From assembly GCA_025060595.1 (NCBI GenBank), contig JANXBX010000001.1, forward strand, positions 185,696-249,695: a DNA stretch of 64,000 nucleotides, read 5' to 3'. Position 1 is the stretch's first letter; each line of letters opens with the position of its first letter. The translations under genes were made by a program, and so were the position numbers. Origin of the DNA: Synergistota bacterium. Its GTDB lineage: Bacteria > Synergistota > GBS-1. Under the pieces are notes generated by a model. It saw nothing but the letters and a program-made list of their open reading frames with translations, made no database searches and was not told where the DNA came from. Shown here in pieces: positions 33,542 through 50,433 of the stretch.

Positions 33542-34159
33542 ATGAGCTTTGAGCTTCTCTTAAGAAATATACCCTTAGAAATAAAGATAGAAGAGGTCAG
33601 AAGATACCTAGGAGAATATAAGGGGATAACAGAGATACCTAAGGAAATAAACTCTTTAATAGAAAGGTTAACTTTGTTTTCCAGAACCCTGATTACACCA
33701 TCAGCAACCTCGAAAAGCTTCAATATACTATCCTTTTCAGATAATATTATTGAAACTGAGGTAGTGAAACTTCCTGGTAGAGACATAGCTAAACTGCTTA
33801 GAAACTCTAAACAAGTTATATTCTGCGCAACTACTATAGGAAACACACTAGAAGAGGAGATAAATAGGCTCATAGATGAGAAAAGAATCCTTGAAGCAAC
33901 AATATTAGACGCTATAGGATCGACAGCTGCAGATACTGCAATGGACTATTTAAATAATTTGCTTAAAGCTGAGGCGATCCGTAAAGGCCTAAGCTTAACA
34001 AGAAGATATAGCCCAGGATATGGAGATTTTCCTCTTTCAATCCAGGAAAGCCTAGTTAAGTTTTCTGGGGGAGACTCTATAGGAATAAGAGTCTCCCCCT
34101 CATATATGCTTATACCAAGAAAATCAGTCACAGCTATAATAGGGGTGATGAAAAATTGA
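33542..34159 (+). CDS. Methionine synthase reactivation (AdoMet-binding) domain protein, stand-alone
   Basis: 205 aa with an RRYSPGYGDFP motif resembling the MetH activation-domain RPxPGYPACP signature. Immediately precedes and overlaps a MetH that lacks this domain, as in the Thermotoga TM0268/TM0269 arrangement. Confidence 0.65.
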   Translation: MSFELLLRNIPLEIKIEEVRRYLGEYKGITEIPKEINSLIERLTLFSRTLITPSATSKSFNILSFSDNIIETEVVKLPGRDIAKLLRNSKQVIFCATTIGNTLEEEINRLIDEKRILEATILDAIGSTAADTAMDYLNNLLKAEAIRKGLSLTRRYSPGYGDFPLSIQESLVKFSGGDSIGIRVSPSYMLIPRKSVTAIIGVMKN

Positions 34160-36495
34160 AGCTTGACTTTGAAAAGATAATGATACTAGATGGAGCAATG
34201 GGCACAGAGCTATACAAGAGAGGACTTCCCTCCACAGCCATACCTGAGGAGCTCAACCTCTCAAACCCAGAAATAGTAAAAGAGGTTCACAAGGCCTACG
34301 TAGAAGCAGGAGCTGACATAATAACTACAAACTCCTTTGGAGGAAACAGAATAAAGCTCCAAAGCAAAGGGCTTTCTCACAAACTCTACGAGATAAATAA
34401 AAAGGCTGCTGAGATAGCTAAAGAGGCCTCAGCAGGGAAATCTTTAGTAGCAGGTTCCTTAGGTCCTTTAGGTAGAATGATTGAACCCTTGGGGGATCTA
34501 TCCTTTGAGGAAGCAGTAAGCATCTTTAAGGAACAAGGATTAGCGCTTGCCGATGGAGGGGTTGACCTTTTTCTTATTGAAACAGCCATAGACATAATGG
34601 AGGTAAAAGCAGCAATACTAGGGTTAAGGGAACTTCCCATTAAGAAGCCTATAATATGCTCTTTAACCTTTACAGAGGGAACCCTTACAGTAACTGGAAC
34701 ATCGCCTTCCGTAGGAGCGGTAAGCTTAACCTCCTGGAGGGTTAACGGATTAGGAGCAAACTGTGGAACTAATCCCTTTATATTTCCAGAGATAATAAAA
34801 GAAATGGCAAGCTATACGGAAATCCCAATAATAGCATATCCCAATGCTGGTCCTCCTGAAAAGTGGGATGAGGTTCCTCCAGAAAAGTTCTTGGAACTTG
34901 GACTCGAAATTTATAATTCTGGAGCCAACATCATAGGAGGTTGTTGCGGAACCACACCCTTCCACATAAGTTTGCTTGCAAAGGAAATTAAAGGTAAAAG
35001 AGTAGTAAAAAGATCCTTAAGAAAAGGGATTTTCCTTACAAGTAGATCCAAAATAGTTGTTTGTGATGACAGTAAAACTATAGTGATAGGGGAAAGAATA
35101 AATCCCTCTGGAAGAAAAGCTCTTGCAGAAGAGCTAAAACAAGGTAAGTTTGAAACTTTAAAAAGAGACGCTATAGAACAAGAGCTTGCAGGAGCTGACC
35201 TTATAGATTTAAATGTAGGCGTTCCTGAAACAGATAGAAAGGCTTTGATGAGAAAAGCAACCATTGAGCTTCTTAAGATAATAAGCTCGCCTCTATCCTT
35301 TGATAGCGATGATCCGGAAGTCATAGAAGCTGGTTTAAAGATATATCCAGGAAAGCCTATTTTAAACTCAACAACAGCGAAAAAAGAGGCATTAGAGAAA
35401 ACACTACCTTTGGCCCAAAAGTATGGAGCCGTAATAATAGGACTTACCATAACTGAAAAGGGCATACCTGAAAGCGTAGAAGAGAGAGTTAAAGCAGCCT
35501 ACAAAATAATCGAAGCAGCCCAGTTTTATGGAATTCCCCCACAAGAGGTTATTATCGACCCATTAACTTTACCAGCTGGAGCTCAGGATCCAACTATAAC
35601 CTTAGAAACCATAAGAAGGCTTAACAAAGATGGAATTAAAACTATCTTAGGAATATCAAACGTCTCTCATGGCTTACCAGGGAGAGAAATCCTAAACTCA
35701 GCATTCCTAGCTATGGCCATTTCGGCTGGACTATCTTTCGCTATAATAAATCCCCTTAAAAAAGAGCTTATGGAAACTGTACTCGCTTCAGACGCATTAA
35801 CCGGCAAAGATAAAAAGGGAGAGAGATTTATAAGACTGATAGGTCCTAAAAGAGAAGAAAAAGAGTTAAGGGTTTCCGACCTAACCTTAAAGGAACTAAT
35901 AATAAGGGGTGAATCTGAAAGTGCTTCTAAAGAAGCGGAAAGGCTTATAAAATCTGGAGAGGAGCCTTTTTCAATAATAGAAAAATACGTCATACCAGGT
36001 CTCGAAGATGTTGGAGAAAAGTATGAAAAAAAGATCTACTTTTTACCACAACTTATAGCCTCTGCAGAAGCTGCAAGTTCGGTATTCGAGACAGTTAAGG
36101 CATTTTCTCTAAGGACTAACTCTCGAAAAGGAAGGATAGTTATGGCAACCGTTGAAGGAGACCTTCACGACCTCGGGAAAAAGATAGTAGGACTTGTTCT
36201 TGAAAGCTTCGGATACGAGATAATAGATCTCGGAAAGGATGTTCCAGCAACAGAGGTTTTAAGGAAGTCACAAGAATTAAAACCCGACGTCGTTGGATTA
36301 AGCTGTCTAATGACAACAACGCTTGATAATATGAAAAAAACTGTAAGGCTAATTAAAGAAAACCTACCAGAGATAAAGATCATGGTAGGAGGAGCGGCGG
36401 TAAATGAAGGCTTTGCAAAAGCCTGTGGTGCCGATGGATATGGTAAAGATCCTTTTCAAGCTGTTGAGCTAGTCAGAAGGTGGATTAAAAGATGA
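34156..36495 (+). CDS. metH: Cobalamin-dependent methionine synthase core (Hcy-binding, pterin-binding, B12-cap and B12-binding domains; no activation domain)
   Basis: ILDGAMGTELY Hcy-domain N-terminus; pterin-binding GERINPSG; DLHDLGKKIVG (DxHxxG) cobalamin motif; 779 aa. Confidence 0.9.
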   Translation: MKLDFEKIMILDGAMGTELYKRGLPSTAIPEELNLSNPEIVKEVHKAYVEAGADIITTNSFGGNRIKLQSKGLSHKLYEINKKAAEIAKEASAGKSLVAGSLGPLGRMIEPLGDLSFEEAVSIFKEQGLALADGGVDLFLIETAIDIMEVKAAILGLRELPIKKPIICSLTFTEGTLTVTGTSPSVGAVSLTSWRVNGLGANCGTNPFIFPEIIKEMASYTEIPIIAYPNAGPPEKWDEVPPEKFLELGLEIYNSGANIIGGCCGTTPFHISLLAKEIKGKRVVKRSLRKGIFLTSRSKIVVCDDSKTIVIGERINPSGRKALAEELKQGKFETLKRDAIEQELAGADLIDLNVGVPETDRKALMRKATIELLKIISSPLSFDSDDPEVIEAGLKIYPGKPILNSTTAKKEALEKTLPLAQKYGAVIIGLTITEKGIPESVEERVKAAYKIIEAAQFYGIPPQEVIIDPLTLPAGAQDPTITLETIRRLNKDGIKTILGISNVSHGLPGREILNSAFLAMAISAGLSFAIINPLKKELMETVLASDALTGKDKKGERFIRLIGPKREEKELRVSDLTLKELIIRGESESASKEAERLIKSGEEPFSIIEKYVIPGLEDVGEKYEKKIYFLPQLIASAEAASSVFETVKAFSLRTNSRKGRIVMATVEGDLHDLGKKIVGLVLESFGYEIIDLGKDVPATEVLRKSQELKPDVVGLSCLMTTTLDNMKKTVRLIKENLPEIKIMVGGAAVNEGFAKACGADGYGKDPFQAVELVRRWIKR

Positions 36496-37658
36496 CAGTT
36501 GAAGAAGAGTTTACTATATATGAGGGCACCCCTTATCACGTTGGTTTTCCAGATGTGGAAAAAGCTCCCAATGGAGACATAATAGTTGTATTTAGATTGG
36601 GAAGTGCACACGTTTGGGGAAGAGACGGAAAGATATACTTATCAAGAAGCAAGGACAAGGGCAAAACCTGGGAAACAAAAGAAGCTCTCCATATACCAGG
36701 AAGATTTATCAAATATGAAGGAGAATACAGGCTTCTTTCCGATGATAGGGATCCCTCTATTAAAGCCCTCTCAAATGGGAAAATGATATTAAGCTGGTTT
36801 CACTGGGGAGAAGGAGACAGAGATAATCCAACCAGCTCGATTTATATATCTATAAGCAATGATAATGGAGAAACATGGGAAGATCCACGCTTAGTCTTTT
36901 TTAACGGAGCAACATCAGACAAGATACTGGAAGCAGAAAAGGGTCTTCTTTTTCTTCCAGCTTATGGAACATTAAGTGAAAGTTACTCATCAGCATTTCT
37001 TATAATAAGCGAAAACTATGGGGAAACTTGGGAGGAAAAACCGATAGTTATAGTTAATGGAAACAAATTTAGAATAAACTTCTACGAACCAGCAATAGCT
37101 AAGGTAAATGAAAAAGAGCTTATTTGTGTCTTAAGAACAGACATAGGACCCTTATACTTGTCTCGATCCAAAGATAACGGAGAGACATGGAGCGAACCTG
37201 AGCCATTACCTTTCTACGGGCATGCACCTCATTTACTTAAGCTAATTAACGGAGACTTAATCTTGAGTTTCAGAGATGTGGAACTATATTTCACAGAAAA
37301 ATGGTTCTGGGAAAAGCTCCTTTACAACTTAGGACTAAGAGAAGAAAATCCCTCCTCTCCATTTCCTAAGGGTGAGCTTCTTCCTGAAACTACAGTAATA
37401 GTCAAAGCTTCTCCCCCAGAATACAACTTTAAAAATAGCGAAAAGAAAATAATATATAAACCAAAGGGATATATAATGGAAAATGGGGATATCCTCTTTG
37501 GAGATTCGGGATATCCTTCAGCGATTGAGCTTGAGGATAATAAGATTCTCTTTGTTTTATACGAAGCCCCTTACGGATATAGAGGGAAATACAGCCCTTG
37601 GAGCAGAATAATAGGAATAAAGATAGAAATAGGAGAACCCGGGAGAGGTGATAAATAA
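36492..37658 (+). CDS. BNR/Asp-box repeat protein (sialidase-like beta-propeller), cytoplasmic
   Basis: Four Asp-boxes ([32 protein letters not shown]); no signal peptide; ATGA overlap with the metH stop. Confidence 0.7.
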
Positions 37659-38526
37659 AATGTATAAAGGTGTAATTTTTGTCGGAGGAGGAAAGGGCGC
37701 CTTAAGTTTGCTCAAGCAATTTAAAAAACTAAACCTAAATATATCTGGAGTAATGGATGTAAGACCAGATGCTCCAGCGGTACTCGAAGCTAAAAAATAT
37801 GGCATATTCACAACTACTAAGCTAGATGAGCTTTTGTCCCGTCCTCATGACCTAATAATAGAAGTAACTGGAAAAGAAGAGGTAGTAGAAGAAGTGGAAA
37901 GAAAAAGAGCGCCTCACGTAAGCTTGATTAAATCAAAAGATGCAAGATTCATATGGGATATAATAGAGCGCGAAGAGAAAGAAAAGGAGCTATTAATAGA
38001 GCAAATAAAACTTCTAAGCGAAACAAAAGGAAGTATAGAATACTCTCTACCAGCTGTTTTAAAACTTTCGGAAACGTTACCTAAAGAAACAGAGGAAGTT
38101 AAAAACGTATCTACATTTCTAACAAGCAGAATAGAAAATCTTATAAACGAAGCTGAAAAGCTCAACGGTATAATTAAATCTATACAAGGAATAGCAAAAC
38201 AGACTAAAATGATAGGTCTTAATGCATCCATTGAGGCAGCAAGAGCAGGAGAATTGGGTAGAGGCTTCGCCGTTGTCGCAAGCGAAGTAAGCAAACTTGC
38301 AGACCAAAGCTCAAGTTCAGCCGGTGAGATATCAAACACCTTAAACTATTTGAAACAAAATATATTATCTCTCAAAGATCCTGTAGAAAACATAAAAGAA
38401 ACCATTGAAAGATGCAATATCCTAGCAGAGGAACTTAAATCTACCGCAACTACACTAAAGAATGCCATAACAGCGCTTCTTCAAATAGAGGAAAAGCTTT
38501 TAACCTTGACCAGAAACGGAGCTTAA
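37648..38526 (+). CDS. Soluble protein with N-terminal Rossmann-like (GxGxxA) domain fused to a minimal methyl-accepting chemotaxis protein signalling domain
   Basis: Highly conserved MCP core [33 protein letters not shown]; N-terminus [10 protein letters not shown]...HDLIIEVTG resembles NAD(P)-binding folds; no TM segments; 292 aa. Confidence 0.65.
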
Positions 38527-38544
38527 GGTAAAATAAGCGCAGGT

Positions 38545-38622
38545 CGGGGTGTAGCGCAGACTGGTTAGCGCGCCTGCTTCGGGAGCAGGAGGTCACCGGT
38601 TCGAGTCCGGTCACCCCGACCA
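38545..38622 (+). tRNA. tRNA-Pro (anticodon CGG)
   Basis: Cloverleaf folded by hand: acceptor CGGGGTG/CACCCCG, D-stem GCGC, anticodon stem CCTGC/GCAGG with loop TTCGGGA (anticodon CGG, G37), T-arm ACCGG-TTCGAGT-CCGGT, discriminator A, encoded CCA. Confidence 0.85.
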
Positions 38623-38627
38623 TGCTT

Positions 38628-39383
38628 TTAATAACAATCTACATAAATAGTGCTACCTTGAACAGAAACTACATTAATTGGTAGACCAGCTACCTTCAAG
38701 CTCTGGGCAACACTATTTACATCCCCAGAGTAGAGGAACTCTATGACCGCCTGTCCTCCACCATATGAGGTTATTCTGACGTTTCGAGCACCAGGAAATC
38801 CTCTAATCTTCTCATAAACGCTATTAACCAAGCCATAGTCAGAAGCACCCCTTAAAACAACACGAGCTATTCCAGAAAAATCCCCTGGTTGTTGAGCTCC
38901 TATTAAAAAGGAAGCAGCTTTTGACGCCGCATCTATAAGAGCCTTACGTTGTGCTTCTTCACCAGTATAACCAACCGCTTTAGCAGAAAAGGCTTGACTC
39001 AACAAAAAACGAGCATCCTTTGCCCTATAAGCTTGGATGGAAAGAGAAGCTGTAGCTGTGTATAAGTTAAACTCGTTTAAACGCGGCTCCTCAAGCTGAG
39101 CTCTACCTCTAACAAAATATGCGATATTATAGGTACTTCCTAACTTCATTATTGCTTCAGCATTACCTTGAAGAGCAAGTATAGCCGCTTGACTTTTCTT
39201 TATACTCTCAAGCTGATCCCTTTCAACCACATTATAACCCGCATTTATAAGGGCTTCCATAACTTTCGACTCAGCAAGAGAGTTATTAAATATAACCGCA
39301 ACTCTTCCATCCCTAGGAAGAGAAGCAAAGGCCTCCCCTACAAAAGCAAAAAGAAAAACTAAGAGGATTATTAGTCTTCTCAT
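38628..39383 (-). CDS. Exported protein with diverged CsgG-like N-terminal domain (operon gene 5 of 5)
   Basis: Sec signal peptide; RVAVIFNNS...NVVERDQLESI...GSTYNIAYFVRG pattern resembles the CsgG/LpoB-like fold; 1-nt overlap with the upstream gene. Confidence 0.5.
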   Translation of the reverse strand: MRRLIILLVFLFAFVGEAFASLPRDGRVAVIFNNSLAESKVMEALINAGYNVVERDQLESIKKSQAAILALQGNAEAIMKLGSTYNIAYFVRGRAQLEEPRLNEFNLYTATASLSIQAYRAKDARFLLSQAFSAKAVGYTGEEAQRKALIDAASKAASFLIGAQQPGDFSGIARVVLRGASDYGLVNSVYEKIRGFPGARNVRITSYGGGQAVIEFLYSGDVNSVAQSLKVAGLPINVVSVQGSTIYVDCY

Positions 39384-40786
39384 TACATAGCACCTACTTC
39401 CTTAAGCTTACTCTTTACAGGCTCATAGTTAGGATTAATAGTAAGCGCCTTTTTCCACCACTTTATTCCCTCGTCTTTCCTTCCCATTTCGTAATATACT
39501 CTGCCTAACCAATAGCAAGCTACATAGTTACCATTATAAGCATCAAAAGCAAGCTTATAGTTCTGAATTGCAAGAGAATAATTTCCCTTAGAATAATTGT
39601 AGTAACCAGCTTTGTGCAACCTTATAAGATTAGTTTTTAAACCTTGATCTATAGGCCATAGCTCTATTACCTCTATAGTTGTCCCCGTATTAAGTATGGA
39701 GCTACTCTGAGATGGTGGTGGAGGCGGTGGCGGCGGTGGTGGCTGAGTACCTCCTCCTTGCTGTGATGGCGGTTGTGAAGATGGCGGAGGTGGCGGAAGT
39801 ACACTTCCAGCAGAGCTTGGAGTAGTTTCAGGGCCAACTGTTAACCTTGGCCTTAGCTTTATATTCTCTATAGCAGAAGCATCAAATATTGGCTCGACTT
39901 TATCTCCTCTCATGACTCCCTTACCCTTGATTACACTTGCTATGGAATATTGGGGGAAAACCTCCTCAACTTGAAGAATAGCTATATAATACTTTTCAAC
40001 ACCAAGAAGCTCTCCTCTAATGCCACGTATAGGCTCACCCTCGATATAAACTGCAAAATAACTTCCAACCGTTACACCCGCATTAGCTTCTCCTGCATCT
40101 ATATAAACTCTGTTCCCCTCATCCCTTATCACATGATATATCATTTTCCCACCACGTGCTCTCATGGCCCCGATTTTTTTAACTATCTTTTCTATACATT
40201 GACGTGTAGCAGCAGCAAGTATTCCTTCCTCCTCGCTTTGGCCATACAGTAATCCCCCAAAGGCTATCCCACCAGCACTACGAGTAGCCTGACCTGTTTC
40301 TTTAGCCACAAGTAATATTTCACCAGTCTCCACACTTATCATTCTGATGTCTAAAGTAACATTAGCTTCTGACTCCCCTACAGCTATCCCGCCAAGCTGA
40401 GGAATAGGAATAATTCCTCCCTTTTTCTTCAAAGTAAATTGAGTTATGCTACCAGTTATAATAGCTTCGACTCCCAAAAGCTTCCCCAATTGAGCAGCAG
40501 TAGAAGCATCAACTAATCCCGCTTGAGCAAGCTTATGTTCCCTCGCGATCGCCTCTAAACGGCTTCTTTCTACTATAGAGAACATCTGCGTTTTCCAAAG
40601 CTCGGTTATAAACATATCAGTTATCGCTCTTCTCACAGCTTCAACCTGGGAACTTTCAGGTCCTGTTACATTATTACTAAAATCTACAACAGCGATTCTC
40701 ATTTTATCAGAAGCTCCAAAAGCAACGGAAACCAAACAACACAGTACGCTAAAAATAATAATCACCCATAAACCAAATTTCTTCAT
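39383..40786 (-). CDS. CsgG-family exported protein with poly-proline linker and C-terminal TPR repeats (operon gene 4 of 5)
   Basis: Signal peptide. RIAVVDFSNN...SIVERSRLEAIAREHKLAQAGLVD...GKLLGVEAIITGSI...DIRMISVETGEIL matches the CsgG Pfam pattern. PPPPPSSQPPSQQGGGTQPPPPPPPPPP tract, then TPR-like YYEMGRKDEGIKWWKKALTINPNY. Confidence 0.7.
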   Translation of the reverse strand: MKKFGLWVIIIFSVLCCLVSVAFGASDKMRIAVVDFSNNVTGPESSQVEAVRRAITDMFITELWKTQMFSIVERSRLEAIAREHKLAQAGLVDASTAAQLGKLLGVEAIITGSITQFTLKKKGGIIPIPQLGGIAVGESEANVTLDIRMISVETGEILLVAKETGQATRSAGGIAFGGLLYGQSEEEGILAAATRQCIEKIVKKIGAMRARGGKMIYHVIRDEGNRVYIDAGEANAGVTVGSYFAVYIEGEPIRGIRGELLGVEKYYIAILQVEEVFPQYSIASVIKGKGVMRGDKVEPIFDASAIENIKLRPRLTVGPETTPSSAGSVLPPPPPSSQPPSQQGGGTQPPPPPPPPPPSQSSSILNTGTTIEVIELWPIDQGLKTNLIRLHKAGYYNYSKGNYSLAIQNYKLAFDAYNGNYVACYWLGRVYYEMGRKDEGIKWWKKALTINPNYEPVKSKLKEVGAM

Positions 40787-40804
40787 AACCGTTACCCTCC
40801 CCTC

Positions 40805-41251
40805 CTACTGAACCTCTACACTATACTCTAACAGTTCCTTTAAAGGTATCTTCAAAACTATTCTATAAAACTTTCCATCAAAAATTTCCTCAGTCACATA
40901 ACCTCCTCCAACTACACCCTTTATCTTCACACTTTTATACCCCTTAGGAAGAGGATAATTAAGCTGATATAAAAGAAAGAGAGCATTTCTTTGGGCTATT
41001 AACACTGCCGCTCTTCGGGCAAGAAGCTTAGCTTGTGCCTCCGTTTCATACTTTTCTGGAACCATTCCTATACCTTTTACAATAACCATCTTCTCTTCCC
41101 AGTCTATGCTACCCCATGGAAAACCTTCCAAGGCAAGATTACCCTCATTAAATCTTCTTAAAAGCTCAATGTCTACATTGTAAGGAACAGCATAGACTGG
41201 GAAAGAAAAAAATAAAAATAAAGGGAGAAGGGTAATAACTACCTTCTTCAA
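40805..41251 (-). CDS. LPP20/FlgP-like exported protein (operon gene 3 of 5)
   Basis: Signal peptide; AQAKLLARRAAVLIAQRNALFLL motif typical of the LPP20/FlgP family; 148 aa. Confidence 0.55.
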   Translation of the reverse strand: MKKVVITLLPLFLFFSFPVYAVPYNVDIELLRRFNEGNLALEGFPWGSIDWEEKMVIVKGIGMVPEKYETEAQAKLLARRAAVLIAQRNALFLLYQLNYPLPKGYKSVKIKGVVGGGYVTEEIFDGKFYRIVLKIPLKELLEYSVEVQ

Positions 41252-42396
41252 ATACCTCCCCCTCCTGGTTTTAACTTACAAATTATATTATTTGCTGTAA
41301 AGTTTACAATCTCCAAACCTAGCTCCTCAAGACGAACCGCTAAGTCTTCAGAATTACCTTCAAAATTAACATCCATTACAAGGTTACCATCGGTAAAGCT
41401 TCTCTGATATACCCCAACAACCCCCTTAAACTTCTCTATCTCACCTTTGATCTTACGAGCCTGAGTAAAGTTTATTCCTTCTACCCTAACCTGTATTGTC
41501 CTTCCAGCGATTCCCTTACCCGTCTGGCCAAGCATAGCATAGGCAACTTCATAAATGAGCTTCTTCGCTGCCTCAGTAGCAGCCTCCCTTAAGGCCTTCA
41601 TGGCAGCATCATCAACGCTTAAACCAATACTTCTAACAGAAGGTATAGCAACCCCTAATATCTTCCCGGTCTGGGTTATTATGGCCTCTATGCTAAGTTG
41701 AGCCTGAACTCCATAAAGTTTTTGACCTGAAACTACTTGAGATGTATAAGGAACCGCCATAGCCTTACCGGATATAACCACATCGGCATCATGTCTTTTA
41801 GCAAGCTCTATCAATCTAGATTTGTCTCCGGTCAAGGCTGCTTCTGTTGCTTCTCTACGCCTGTTAACGTCCACCTGACCAGGATCAACTATATGATATC
41901 CAGCATTTTGAAAGATACTTAATATAGTAGACTCACTAACTGAGAGAAAAGGGGTTTTCCCATCTATGTTTTCAGCTATACAAACCATTAAAACTGGATT
42001 ACCCAAGGTATCAATGACCACAGGTCCTAAAACATCGTTTAACTTAGTTAAGGCAACTGTCGCTTTCATTTTAACTTTTATCATCCCGTCTTCTTCCCAT
42101 CTACTAAGGACCTTATAGTCAGTGACGAGCCCCTTAGACTGAGCCATAACTTTATCTCTTATAACCTGAAAGTTTTCCATTTCCGTTATTCCTTGAATTA
42201 AAACCCCCAACCCTTGCTCTATAGCATTTCTAAAAGCATCCCTTTTCGCCTCTTCAAAGGCCCTGTTTTTATCTCCCCCTATAATAGCCCCTACTCCCTC
42301 TACATCAAGCGTAACACTACCTTTTTCTTGCCCAACTACCACAAACGGACAAGCTAACAGAAGTGATAATAAAAGAAAAGGTAGTAAGAGCCTCAT
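41248..42396 (-). CDS. Multidomain lipoprotein: LPP20/FlgP-like N-domain + CsgG-like middle domain + C-terminal domain (operon gene 2 of 5)
   Basis: Lipobox LLLAC; GGDKNRAFEEAKRDAFRNAIEQGLGVLIQGITEMENFQV (LPP20-like), then VLMVCIAENIDGK...GYHIVDPGQVD...HDADVVISG (CsgG-like). Confidence 0.55.
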   Translation of the reverse strand: MRLLLPFLLLSLLLACPFVVVGQEKGSVTLDVEGVGAIIGGDKNRAFEEAKRDAFRNAIEQGLGVLIQGITEMENFQVIRDKVMAQSKGLVTDYKVLSRWEEDGMIKVKMKATVALTKLNDVLGPVVIDTLGNPVLMVCIAENIDGKTPFLSVSESTILSIFQNAGYHIVDPGQVDVNRRREATEAALTGDKSRLIELAKRHDADVVISGKAMAVPYTSQVVSGQKLYGVQAQLSIEAIITQTGKILGVAIPSVRSIGLSVDDAAMKALREAATEAAKKLIYEVAYAMLGQTGKGIAGRTIQVRVEGINFTQARKIKGEIEKFKGVVGVYQRSFTDGNLVMDVNFEGNSEDLAVRLEELGLEIVNFTANNIICKLKPGGGGI

Positions 42397-42402
42397 TCAG
42401 GC

Positions 42403-43245
42403 TCACCTTTTCACCACTATAACATTGCAAGCGGCTCTAAAGTCATAGTTATTATTTCTTATAGCATCTGCATCCTTCTGAGAAATAACCACATCTACAT
42501 TATTAGGAGAAACGGTTTGAACAGCCTTAGCCACAAGAGGCCTAGGACCCACCCTTGGATCGCCCGTTGCCCAGTTTATGTTAGTTTGATAGGCGGCCAT
42601 ACCGCTTGCCATGAACCTTTCCCTATCAACATGCTGAAGAGAGTAAACTTCCTTTCCATTGGGATCCAAAATTCTAAAGGTAGTAGCAGGAATCAAAGGC
42701 ACTTCACGCGCATCAAGAACAAGCCCAGTGTAGTTCGCCTTAGGTGGGGGTGGTGATACCGGTTTGGATTGGATACCCATGGTATCAGCAACAATCTTCC
42801 TCACTTTCTTAAGATATATTCTTCCCCAAACGGTGTAAATCTCCCCATCCCACTTTTCCCTAACTATCTCAACACCTTTAATCCATCCTTCCACTTCGCT
42901 TCTCACAACATCGCTTTTAACCATAAAGTTTTCCATAAGAGTCTGACTATCTATTCTAACTCCTTTTATAGTCTCGAGTAAGTTTCTCTGAAGGTCTAAA
43001 ATAGCTCCCCTCTTAGCTAGGAGTTTCCCTTGAGCTTTATTAACAGCAGTAGTCGGGGGAACAGCAGAACCCGAAGCCTCAACATAGTCCTCCGTCCAGT
43101 TAATGGTTCCGTGAGCCGTCTCTTCTATAACCTTTTCCATTTCAGCTCCCGCTTGAGCCTGAATTCCGGAAGATTGAGCGAAAGCCCCAAGTGCCATAAT
43201 CCCTAATCCTAAACATACCATTAGCCATCCTATGGGCTTCCTCAT
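42403..43245 (-). CDS. LPP20/FlgP-like exported protein with extra C-terminal domain (operon gene 1 of 5)
   Basis: Signal peptide; AVNKAQGKLLAKRGAILDLQRNLLETIKGVRIDSQTLMENFMV...DGEIYTVWGRI matches the LPP20/FlgP pattern. Confidence 0.55.
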   Translation of the reverse strand: MRKPIGWLMVCLGLGIMALGAFAQSSGIQAQAGAEMEKVIEETAHGTINWTEDYVEASGSAVPPTTAVNKAQGKLLAKRGAILDLQRNLLETIKGVRIDSQTLMENFMVKSDVVRSEVEGWIKGVEIVREKWDGEIYTVWGRIYLKKVRKIVADTMGIQSKPVSPPPPKANYTGLVLDAREVPLIPATTFRILDPNGKEVYSLQHVDRERFMASGMAAYQTNINWATGDPRVGPRPLVAKAVQTVSPNNVDVVISQKDADAIRNNNYDFRAACNVIVVKR

Positions 43246-49275: not shown

Positions 49276-49629
49276 ATGGCAGAGCAATATCATGAACCAA
49301 CAAATGAACTAACAGCAAAAGACAGGGATTTCACAAGAGCGCTCGTAAGCTTAAAGGAAGAGATCGAAGCAATAATGTGGTACCAGCAGAGAGCTTCCGC
49401 CACCAAAGATGAAACCATTAGGGAAGTGTTAGAACACAACAGGGACGAAGAGATGGAGCATGCGGCTATGCTCCTTGAGTGGCTCAGAAGAAACATGCCT
49501 GGCTGGGATAAAGCTTTAAAAACTTATCTCTTTACAACTGAACCATTAACACAGATAGAAGCGGAAGTAAGTAATGAAGAGGAATCTCCAGGTGGAGATC
49601 TTAAACTAAGAAAGATTAAAAGGGGGTGA
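49276..49629 (+). CDS. Encapsulated ferritin-like protein (EncFtn/Flp cargo) with C-terminal encapsulin targeting peptide
   Basis: Two ExxH di-iron motifs (EEIEAIMWYQQR, EEMEHAAML) and C-terminal GGDLKLRKIKRG resembling the T. maritima Flp cargo-loading peptide; directly precedes the encapsulin gene. Confidence 0.8.
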   Translation: MAEQYHEPTNELTAKDRDFTRALVSLKEEIEAIMWYQQRASATKDETIREVLEHNRDEEMEHAAMLLEWLRRNMPGWDKALKTYLFTTEPLTQIEAEVSNEEESPGGDLKLRKIKRG

Positions 49630-49635
49630 ATTCTA

Positions 49636-50433
49636 GTGGACTTCTTAAGGAGAAAGCTATCTCCACTTACACCTAAAGAATGGGAAGAGGTAGATAAGAG
49701 AGCTAAAGAAGTGTTCTCAACCCAACTTTATGGAAGAGCAATAGTAGACGTTCTTGGTCCTTTTGGATGGGAATACGCTGCACATCCTATGGGTGAAGTA
49801 GAAAAGCTCTCTAAAGAAGGAGATACTATAGAGTTTGGTTTAAGAAAAGCGCTTCCTTTAATAGAGCTAAAGAGGTACTTCTACCTCGATCTTAATGAAC
49901 TTGATAAATTAGAAAGGGGACATCCTGCGGTAGACCTATCCTCCCTAGAAGAAGCGGTTAGAGACGTTGCATCTTTCGAAGACGGAGCTATCTTCGAAGG
50001 ATGTGAAAAGTCTGGAATAAAAGGAATTTTAGCTTATAAAAATGAAAGAAACATACAATCTTCCTTGAAAGAGGAGGAGTTTATAGAAAGCTTATACAAG
50101 GCCTTATCTAAATTCAAGTCTGATGGAATTGAAGGACCCTACGCCTTAGTTATAAACATAGATAAGTGGGTAGAACTCGTTAAGGGAAGCAAGTATTATC
50201 CTATAGAGGAAAAGATTGAAGATATATTAAAAGATGGTAAGATTCTCACCACACCACGTATAAGCGATGCTCTTGTGGTTTCTGAAAGAGGCGGTGATTT
50301 TGAGCTTATTTTAGGACAAGACCTATCAATAGGTTATGAAAAAACAGAAAACTCGAAGGTAAAACTATTTATCCTTGAAAGCTTCACCTTTAGAGTGGTC
50401 AACCCTGAAGCTTTAGTATATCTTAAGTTTTAA
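49636..50433 (+). CDS. Family-1 encapsulin nanocompartment shell protein (HK97 fold; linocin M18/maritimacin-like)
   Basis: 265 aa; strong similarity along the full length to T. maritima encapsulin as recalled from memory ([45 protein letters not shown]). Confidence 0.9.

Follow-up and report, generated by a model that had tools for sequence, protein, structure and literature searches.

A small soluble chemoreceptor of Synergistota with a Rossmann-type N-terminal domain, a candidate dinucleotide sensor

Introduction

A stretch of 64,000 nucleotides (nt) from a Synergistota bacterium (GTDB lineage Bacteria; Synergistota; GBS-1; GenBank assembly GCA_025060595.1, contig JANXBX010000001.1, forward-strand positions 185,696 to 249,695), here called the window and numbered from its first nucleotide, contains at positions 37660-38526 a gene that raises a simple question: what would a nucleotide-binding type of fold be doing at the front of a chemotaxis receptor? 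An earlier note, made by a model from the sequence alone, had described the product as a soluble fusion of a Rossmann-like domain to the minimal signalling core of a methyl-accepting chemotaxis protein (MCP). We favour, with a probability of roughly 0.55, the reading that the protein is a soluble, homodimeric minimal chemoreceptor. Its sensor would be a catalytically dead Rossmann domain, most likely binding a dinucleotide, with nicotinamide adenine dinucleotide (NAD(H)) as the best guess, and coupled in-line to a CheA/CheW signalling tip.

The signalling module

The carboxy-terminal part identifies the protein as a bona fide MCP-domain protein. The Pfam model PF00015 (MCPsignal) matches with 97.5 bits against a cut-off of 34.6 (E 1.1e-27; residues 158-284 in the numbering of the maximal open reading frame (ORF) of 292 amino acids (aa)). 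The hairpin-tip motif (residues 185-217; 38212-38310 on the forward strand, as are all features of the gene) is delimited by the profile match, the tip alignment and the invariant columns G186 to A207, and it aligns with the tips of Thermotoga maritima TM1143 and Escherichia coli Tsr at 57 bits. In MCPs this motif is the contact site for CheA/CheW and the seat of trimer-of-dimers formation. Among the orthologues the canonical tip is 100% conserved over its full length, GRGF motif included. Profile score and canonical tip thus bear out the C-terminal chemoreceptor core that had been recognised before.

In the AlphaFold2 model of the full-length protein (29-sequence alignment; mean predicted local distance difference test score (pLDDT) 90.4) a helix comprising residues 92-195 is followed by a turn at residue 196 and by two further helices (197-236 and 239-286). 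According to the DSSP assignment of this model the first helix, the N-arm, runs continuously from the end of the last strand of the N-terminal domain, b5, to the tip (37933-38244), and the C-arm helices (residues 197-286; 38248-38517) pack against it as an antiparallel hairpin. Foldseek aligns the full model, with its predicted hairpin, with the MCP structures 9a72, 3g67, 1qu7, 2ch7 and 8c5v, the first four of which also support the C-arm assignment; the top match, 9a72_A, is an integrative model of Bacillus subtilis YfmS with CheW. From the end of b5 the N-arm measures 105 residues and the C-arm 91 residues, equal to 13.0 heptads, and the first ~2 heptads of the N-arm helix (residues 92-105) project past the C-arm in the predicted structure. 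Judged by these arm lengths, the receptor would comprise ~24-26 heptads, which would place it in or close to 24H, the shortest class that is recognised.

The protein also appears to be truly minimal. As claimed in the earlier note, it lacks transmembrane helices, a HAMP domain and methylation helices: the highest 19-residue Kyte-Doolittle mean is 0.79, neither HAMP nor PAS gives a Pfam match even at E<=1, and the methylation consensus [ASTG][ASTG]xx[EQ][EQ]xx[ASTG][ASTG] is absent from the window protein, as it is from 24 of 29 relatives. It is important to note that the missing consensus does not rule out MCP membership, since this feature is not universal among MCPs (e.g. Aer).

The Rossmann domain

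Structure prediction and family profiles indicate that residues 1-91 (37660-37932) form a genuine Rossmann fold, here regarded as the sensor domain. Modelled in isolation with AlphaFold2, this N-domain reached a pLDDT of 92.5 and a predicted template modelling score (pTM) of 0.85. It has the five-stranded topology b1-aA-b2-aB-b3-a-b4-a-b5, with b1 predicted at residues 5-8, b2 at 28-32, b4 at 65-68 and b5 at 88-90. In Foldseek the isolated domain came closest to the NAD(P)H-binding domains of human PYCR1 (pyrroline-5-carboxylate (P5C) reductase) and of DmpF-type acetaldehyde dehydrogenases (1nvm, 4lrt, 4jn6). All of them, PYCR1 included, reach a TMq of 0.67-0.72 at a root-mean-square deviation of ~2.3 Å over ~97 residues. 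When the family profile of the N-domain was compared with the PDB, acylating acetaldehyde dehydrogenases were found at E 2e-7 to 3e-5, in an alignment that pairs GxGxxG with GxGxxG and E-V-T-G with E-A-T-S of the dehydrogenase. Model, structural matches and family profile therefore support the NAD(P)-type fold that the earlier note had seen in the first ~100 aa, and the predicted five-stranded fold speaks against a mere coiled-coil extension of the MCP helix.

Profile libraries gave a graded picture. Among 23 isolated N-domains of the family, Pfam detected GFO_IDH_MocA in 14 (best E 1e-9), NAD_binding_3 in 10 and DapB_N in eight, together with weak matches to CoA_binding (1/23) and to the S-adenosylmethionine (SAM)-dependent HcgC (3/23). 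NCBIfam returned TIGR03215 (acetylating acetaldehyde dehydrogenase) for 14 and Rex for three (4e-4) of the same 23. The window's own N-domain finds its best Pfam match in NAD_binding_3, with 15.4 bits against a cut-off of 24 (E 0.032). The domain search suggested in the note thus succeeded for MCPsignal and for the N-domains of the family, but not for that of the window protein itself, which stays below the Pfam cut-offs; its assignment to the Rossmann folds is therefore based on the profile of the family together with the predicted structure. A dedicated model for the N-domain was found neither in Pfam (2025 copy) nor in NCBIfam (June 2026).

Could the protein be an enzyme? Strand b5 runs directly into the receptor helix that starts at residue 92, and the catalytic and dimerisation half of a dehydrogenase is missing. 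Matches to dehydrogenases never extend past residue ~100, and no C-terminal catalytic (Cys or EKP-type motif) or oligomerisation domain was detected. With the domain ending at b5 and giving way to the MCP helix, an oxidoreductase can be ruled out.

Nevertheless, the cofactor-type positions have been retained. Conservation was counted over 151 N-domain instances drawn from all architectures. The glycine-rich loop between b1 and aA, G9-G-G11-K-G13-A14 (37684-37701), reads GxGxxA in the window protein and GxGxGG in most relatives: G9 and G11 are conserved in 100%, G13 in 91%, and position 14 is G in 88% and A, as in the window protein, in 7%. Asp33 (37756-37758), at the C-terminal end of b2, is conserved in 96% and invariant in two alignments (A1, A2). 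In Rossmann folds of the NAD and flavin adenine dinucleotide (FAD) types this position contacts the hydroxyls of the adenine ribose, a role that Asp33 would share. With D33, b2 ends in an acidic residue, a feature of NAD over NADP preference. After b4 follows the motif E68-V-T70-G71 (37861-37872; T70 98%, G71 99%, E68 67%), and a family-specific motif A38-P-G40…A44 as well as A95 at the start of the output helix are also conserved. As judged from these alignments, conservation in the N-domain peaks at the positions through which Rossmann folds contact the dinucleotide. In addition, the N-domains of the Synergistota orthologues are 91/86/78/79/71% identical to that of the window protein, compared with 85/79/72/70/61% for the respective whole proteins.

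Family and reuse of the N-domain

The architecture had been called unusual. It is indeed uncommon, but not unique, as it belongs to a family that extends across several phyla. Orthologues in other Synergistota share 61-85% identity with the window protein. A wider family of proteins of 260-310 aa with 29-39% identity occurs in Bacillota and in other metagenome-assembled genomes (MAGs), and several of its members carry MCPsignal together with GFO_IDH_MocA, NAD_binding_3 or DapB_N matches. A search of 1.84 billion cluster representatives with the N-domain profile retrieved 1648 proteins at E<=1e-3, of which 1001 reach E<=1e-10.

The best 150 matches were sorted into architectures with local HMMER probes, and ten were checked against Pfam; the counts are therefore approximate. 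About half of them (~79; 260-290 aa) are N-domain-MCP fusions. Apart from these, ~20 are histidine kinases of the type N-domain-(PAS/GAF)-HisKA-HATPase, several of them hybrid, ~7 are N-domain-GAF-GGDEF cyclases, five are N-domain-(PAS)-sigma54 activators and five contain two or three tandem copies of the N-domain; the remainder are short fragments. Complete stand-alone N-domain proteins of 126-130 aa were found by a word-indexed search in Marinomonas, Beggiatoa, Aneurinibacillus and Desulfobacteria, where they go under the names 'oxidoreductase', 'putative homoserine dehydrogenase' or 'acetaldehyde dehydrogenase'. Going by these architectures, fusion to kinases, cyclases and sigma-54 activators is a hallmark of a signal-input domain. 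Together, a conserved binding site, the lost catalysis and the promiscuous attachment to signalling outputs give the N-domain the signature of a sensor domain. What had looked like an odd fusion becomes one case within a large family of proteins, whose common element is a sensor domain, apparently without a name, that recurs in several signalling systems. A scan of genome contigs with the full-length alignment was seeded on the MCP tip, returned generic MCPs only (residues 100-286), and was uninformative on the family.

The same data bear on whether the Rossmann domain senses anything at all. It might be blind to ligands and serve as a mere dimerisation or cap domain, so that the protein would be a constitutive, signal-blind component of receptor arrays. 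The domain has five strands only, without b6 or a partner domain on the nicotinamide side, and in the window variant GxGxxA the third glycine is replaced by A, as might be expected of such a cap. The top-conserved residues, however, are canonical cofactor contacts that dimerisation alone would not need, and the domain's use with no fewer than five types of output argues for an input function. We therefore consider a signal-blind cap very unlikely.

Some members depart from the common plan. The tandem cases include a PAS histidine kinase headed by three N-domains, proteins that consist of two to three N-domains on their own, and a duplicated unit of Rossmann domain and short MCP-like part (P0121, 811 aa; P0122, 345 aa; P0131, 456 aa). 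In many family members the C-arm has just 73-76 residues (~10.5 heptads). A sub-branch of only 216-225 aa (P0205, P0215, P0234, P0244, P0247) has ~7-9 heptads per arm and a degenerate tip, in which [KR]AFSVVV replaces GRGFAVVA; being far shorter than 24H, these proteins may have lost the role of an array-forming receptor.

Several members without a catalytic domain bear the database names 'Gfo/Idh/MocA family oxidoreductase' (P0020), 'oxidoreductase', 'putative homoserine dehydrogenase' or 'acetaldehyde dehydrogenase' (also P0270, P0290, P0305). Such names probably represent a systematic misannotation.

The nearest relatives of the MCP module sit in other small soluble receptors, which carry N-terminal PocR, Diacid_rec, PrpR_N, globin, CZB or RnfB-type FeS sensors (P0045, P0055, P0060, P0072, P0074, P0078, P0086, P0097). 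This sequence relationship suggests a pool of short receptor scaffolds with swappable cytoplasmic sensors.

Ligand and proposed mechanism

Which ligand would such a sensor read? NAD(H) appears most likely because of D33 and the identity of the nearest families. In the mechanism that we propose, occupancy by NAD(H) or another dinucleotide, or its redox state, would alter the packing of the two Rossmann domains in the dimer. The altered packing would shift the register or the rotation of the parallel helices that run from b5, and this shift, on reaching the conserved tip, would modulate CheA through CheW. The output would be taxis or another Che-type response tied to the internal metabolic or redox state.

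Three observations relate to the coupling element. In relatives such as the kinase P0155 the helix that leaves b5 runs on, as a coiled coil, into the histidine box of the dimerisation and histidine phosphotransfer (DHp) domain, and in the MCP fusions it forms the N-arm. Furthermore, the commonest distances from sensor to tip (A95 to tip), 102 and 95 residues, differ by exactly one heptad, and a single heptad register is common to 32 of 51 proteins, a count that is inflated by sequence relatedness. Lengths and register are consistent with a rigid in-line coupling.

Several points weigh against the favoured reading. The window N-domain alone reaches no Pfam or NCBIfam threshold and matches nothing at E<=0.01. 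The dinucleotide is a putative ligand, and GxGxxG combined with the acidic end of b2 would also fit binders of FAD, SAM, coenzyme A (CoA) or ADP-ribose. The predicted structure is that of a monomer. The heptad-register count is confounded by sequence kinship. Moreover, no conserved gene neighbourhood outside Synergistota points to a signal, and neither cheA, cheW or cheY nor a flagellar gene was found in the 64-kb window or in 20 kb of further flank.

The breadth of the binding motif leads directly to a second possibility, namely that architecture and mechanism are as proposed and the ligand is a non-redox adenine metabolite (CoA/acetyl-CoA, SAM or S-adenosylhomocysteine (SAH), ADP-ribose, ATP/ADP), so that the carbon or methyl-group status, rather than the NADH/NAD+ ratio, would be read out. 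By sequence the nearest relatives are the acylating, CoA-dependent acetaldehyde dehydrogenases, whose Rossmann site reportedly takes both NAD+ and CoA. The weak CoA_binding and HcgC matches point in the same direction, as does the fact that in Synergistota the gene shares a unit with a SAM-reactivated methionine synthase. On the other hand, NAD(P)-dependent dehydrogenases are by far the commonest profile matches, the structural neighbours are NAD(P)H domains, and the linkage to metH is confined to one lineage. We thus regard a non-redox ligand as unlikely.

The tip raises a further question, that of the signalling partner. The MCP-like module might act outside flagellar chemotaxis, either in a Che-like pathway with another output or as an orphan that sequesters or scaffolds its partners. 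Such a role would agree with the lack of che and flagellar genes in the 64 kb and of a methylation consensus, with the degenerate tip of the 216-225 aa sub-branch, and with a PocR-MCP gene next to the receptor gene in a related MAG, whose product stops just past the tip. The pathway of very short (24H-type) receptors is, in addition, unresolved even in Vibrio cholerae (PMC7534058). Against this stands the full canonical tip of the window protein, GRGF included; its complete conservation among the orthologues is hard to explain without partners of the CheA/CheW type. One Firmicute member of the family, moreover, lies near motAB and a transmembrane MCP. Receptor genes are, besides, commonly unlinked to che operons. 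We consider a role outside flagellar chemotaxis quite unlikely.

Returning to the favoured dinucleotide sensor, it is tempting to extend it beyond the window. The N-domain of ~95 residues could be an unnamed, widespread bacterial input domain that reads the NADH/NAD+ or another dinucleotide pool and acts through an in-line helix on at least four outputs (chemoreceptor, histidine kinase, diguanylate cyclase, sigma-54 activator). Thermophilic fermenters such as this Synergistota lineage would then have a direct energy taxis that needs no respiration. We offer this extension tentatively, as a possibility worth considering rather than a probable outcome. If it were true, behaviour would be steered by a new principle of sensing, in which a chemoreceptor binds a pyridine nucleotide directly. 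This would matter particularly in strict anaerobes, where redox balance hangs on NADH and not on a respiratory chain. Knowledge of the ligand would annotate ~1000 protein clusters and correct the 'oxidoreductase' and 'homoserine dehydrogenase' labels. The N-domain would also offer a small, modular and genetically encodable part for metabolite sensing, and a complete soluble receptor of 288 aa is attractive for structures of sensor-to-tip coupling without HAMP.

Comparison with known systems

The MCPs Aer, AerC and Aer2 (PAS-FAD/PAS-haem) likewise have a cytoplasmic sensor on an MCP module and report the internal metabolic or redox state, and Aer functions without methylation-based adaptation (PMC13401364, PMC13232288). 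Their sensors, however, are PAS domains with FAD or haem that act via HAMP on signalling domains of 36H-44H, whereas here a Rossmann domain is joined directly to ~24-26 heptads. With no PAS or HAMP match at E<=1, membership in the Aer-type receptors was rejected.

Rex is a catalytically inactive Rossmann domain that serves as an NADH/NAD+ sensor and controls an output domain in a dimer. The parallel lies in the use of a dead Rossmann domain as a dinucleotide sensor, accompanied by the weak profile similarity of three of the 23 family members (4e-4). In contrast to the window protein, Rex has a winged-helix DNA-binding output and carries a Rossmann domain of the CoA_binding type at its C-terminus. 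No helix-turn-helix was found in the window protein and the PDB entry of Rex, 5zz5, appears only at E 0.58; membership in Rex was accordingly rejected.

By sequence, the acylating acetaldehyde dehydrogenases DmpF, MhpF and BphJ (1nvm, 4lrs, 4jn6) are closest to the sensor (E 2e-7), with a TMq of 0.70-0.72 and shared GxGxxG and E-x-T-[GS] motifs. These enzymes of ~300 aa, however, have a catalytic-Cys/dimerisation domain and an aldolase partner, all of which are missing here. As no catalytic or oligomerisation domain follows residue 90, the protein was not assigned to the acetaldehyde dehydrogenase or Gfo/Idh/MocA enzymes.

B. subtilis YfmS (286 aa), a soluble chemoreceptor according to PMC7542364, and T. 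maritima Tm14 (3g67) are short cytoplasmic MCPs that also lack transmembrane segments and HAMP. The Foldseek match to them spans only the helical hairpin (174-197 columns), and 9a72 is not among the top 50 Foldseek matches of the isolated N-domain, which led us to reject a sensor shared with YfmS. By analogy, the window protein would functionally most resemble a Rex-type dead Rossmann NADH sensor that has been grafted onto a small soluble receptor of the YfmS/Tm14 type.

The 24H MCPs (McpA-like; V. cholerae VC1406 and VCA0864) are the shortest recognised class, include soluble PAS members and have an unclear pathway assignment (PMC7534058). Compared by arm length, the window protein has a C-arm of 13.0 heptads and an N-arm of 105 residues as against 12 heptads per arm in 24H, a class assigned with its own hidden Markov models. 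Many C-arms of the family (~10.5 heptads) and those of one sub-branch (~8) are shorter than the 24H class implies.

The energy-taxis receptors described in the literature covered here sense redox indirectly via FAD- or haem-PAS, globin or zinc (CZB) domains, and an aerotaxis-receptor review of July 2026 never mentions NADH. Full-text literature searches yielded nothing on a chemoreceptor or sensor domain of the Rossmann or NAD-binding kind, although earlier census-type mentions in reviews may exist.

Gene model and genomic context

The maximal ORF, 37648-38526 on the forward strand (GTG start, 292 aa), is present in the sequence, and the three protein strings quoted in the earlier note were found in it verbatim. 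The coding sequence, however, is probably 37660-38526 (stop codon included), with ATG 37660 as start codon and a product of 288 aa. In the assembly GCA_026414785.1, a 'Synergistetes bacterium' MAG, the window recurs in reverse complement at ~13.6-77.6 kb of contig JAOAII010000002.1 (263 kb). An NCBI-annotated protein from a gene called there (P0001, 288 aa) is 100% identical to this product, and all orthologues begin with MYKGV, MYRGV or MENGV, which corresponds to ATG 37660. The same start is supported by a putative Shine-Dalgarno-like element read from the sequence, GGGAGAGGTGA (37641-37651, forward strand, 8 nt upstream of the ATG), and by the orthologous contig from Great Boiling Spring, where the BNR gene and the receptor gene are 28 nt apart. 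The stop codon of the upstream BNR gene occupies 37656-37658, which leaves 1 nt before ATG 37660. The overlap of 11 nt with the BNR gene that had been reported thus vanishes; it applies only to the maximal GTG ORF and is an artefact of choosing the longest frame. With a GC content of 36.7% for the gene and 39.5% for the window, we saw no signal of horizontal acquisition.

Upstream, also on the forward strand, lie a gene for a TM0269-like MetH reactivation protein (33542-34159; 205 aa; PDB 1J6R, E 9e-14; no Pfam match on record), a metH gene whose product lacks the activation domain (34156-36495; 779 aa; S-methyl_trans, Pterin_bind and B12-binding domains) and the gene for a BNR_2 protein (36492-37658). 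TM0269 itself is presumably the separate reactivation protein of T. maritima MetH. The window hence appears to encode a split methionine synthase, with the reactivation-type gene upstream of metH and overlapping it by 4 nt. The spacing is -4 nt between the 205-aa gene and metH, -4 nt between metH and the BNR gene and +1 nt between the BNR gene and the receptor gene, and no terminator-like site was found between the upstream genes and the receptor gene. It is therefore reasonable to regard the latter as the last gene of the metH unit, as had been proposed. The order MetH reactivation protein, MetH, BNR_2, receptor gene and convergent lipoprotein cluster is conserved in three Synergistota contigs, counting that of the window. 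In Bacillota and other lineages, the receptor gene stands alone in unrelated contexts, and the linkage to metH is therefore lineage-specific and probably not mechanistic.

One related genome deviates from this order. In GCA_053987915.1 a gene for a PocR-domain protein of 247 aa (contig L003, 7238-7981), absent from the window, is inserted between the BNR gene and the receptor orthologue. Its product has a degenerate MCP-like tip and ends ~35 residues past it, so that it is effectively half a receptor hairpin.

Two of the stand-alone homologues can be placed in a genomic context. The one of Beggiatoa alba B18LD (contig L093, 6001-6393) is oriented divergently beside an rnfABCDGE-type operon (rnf, ferredoxin:NAD+ oxidoreductase). 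That of Marinomonas fungiae (contig L092, 6001-6381) adjoins a Usp gene and is near a PAS-GGDEF-EAL gene. One sigma-54 activator fusion, an anecdotal case, lies beside genes for a TRAP transporter and a flavoprotein/Fe-S dehydrogenase. As clues to the ligand, the rnf and flavoprotein/Fe-S neighbourhoods are suggestive only.

Downstream of the receptor gene, after 18 nt, follows a tRNA-Pro(CGG) gene (38545-38622, forward strand). A promoter-like element, TTGACC-17-TAAAAT (38506-38534, forward strand), lies inside the 3' end of the receptor gene, just upstream of the tRNA gene; with 10 of 12 positions it is the best sigma-70-like match in the region. A cluster of five envelope lipoprotein genes (38628-43245, reverse strand) converges on the receptor gene and is syntenic in three Synergistota contigs. 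It encodes proteins of 251 aa (weak CsgG), 467 aa (CsgG/LpoB-like, with a proline-rich linker and TPR), 148 aa, 382 aa (LipL46-like) and 280 aa. The 382-aa protein gave sub-threshold FlgT_N and SIMPL matches. The flagellar hint contained in the FlgT_N match (E 0.006) was dismissed, as NCBIfam assigned LipL46, LpoB and CsgG-like lipoproteins instead. Further downstream, at ~49278-50433 on the forward strand, an EncFtn-like cargo gene and a Linocin_M18 shell gene form an encapsulin pair, which is followed by genes for an M32 carboxypeptidase and a rhodanese.

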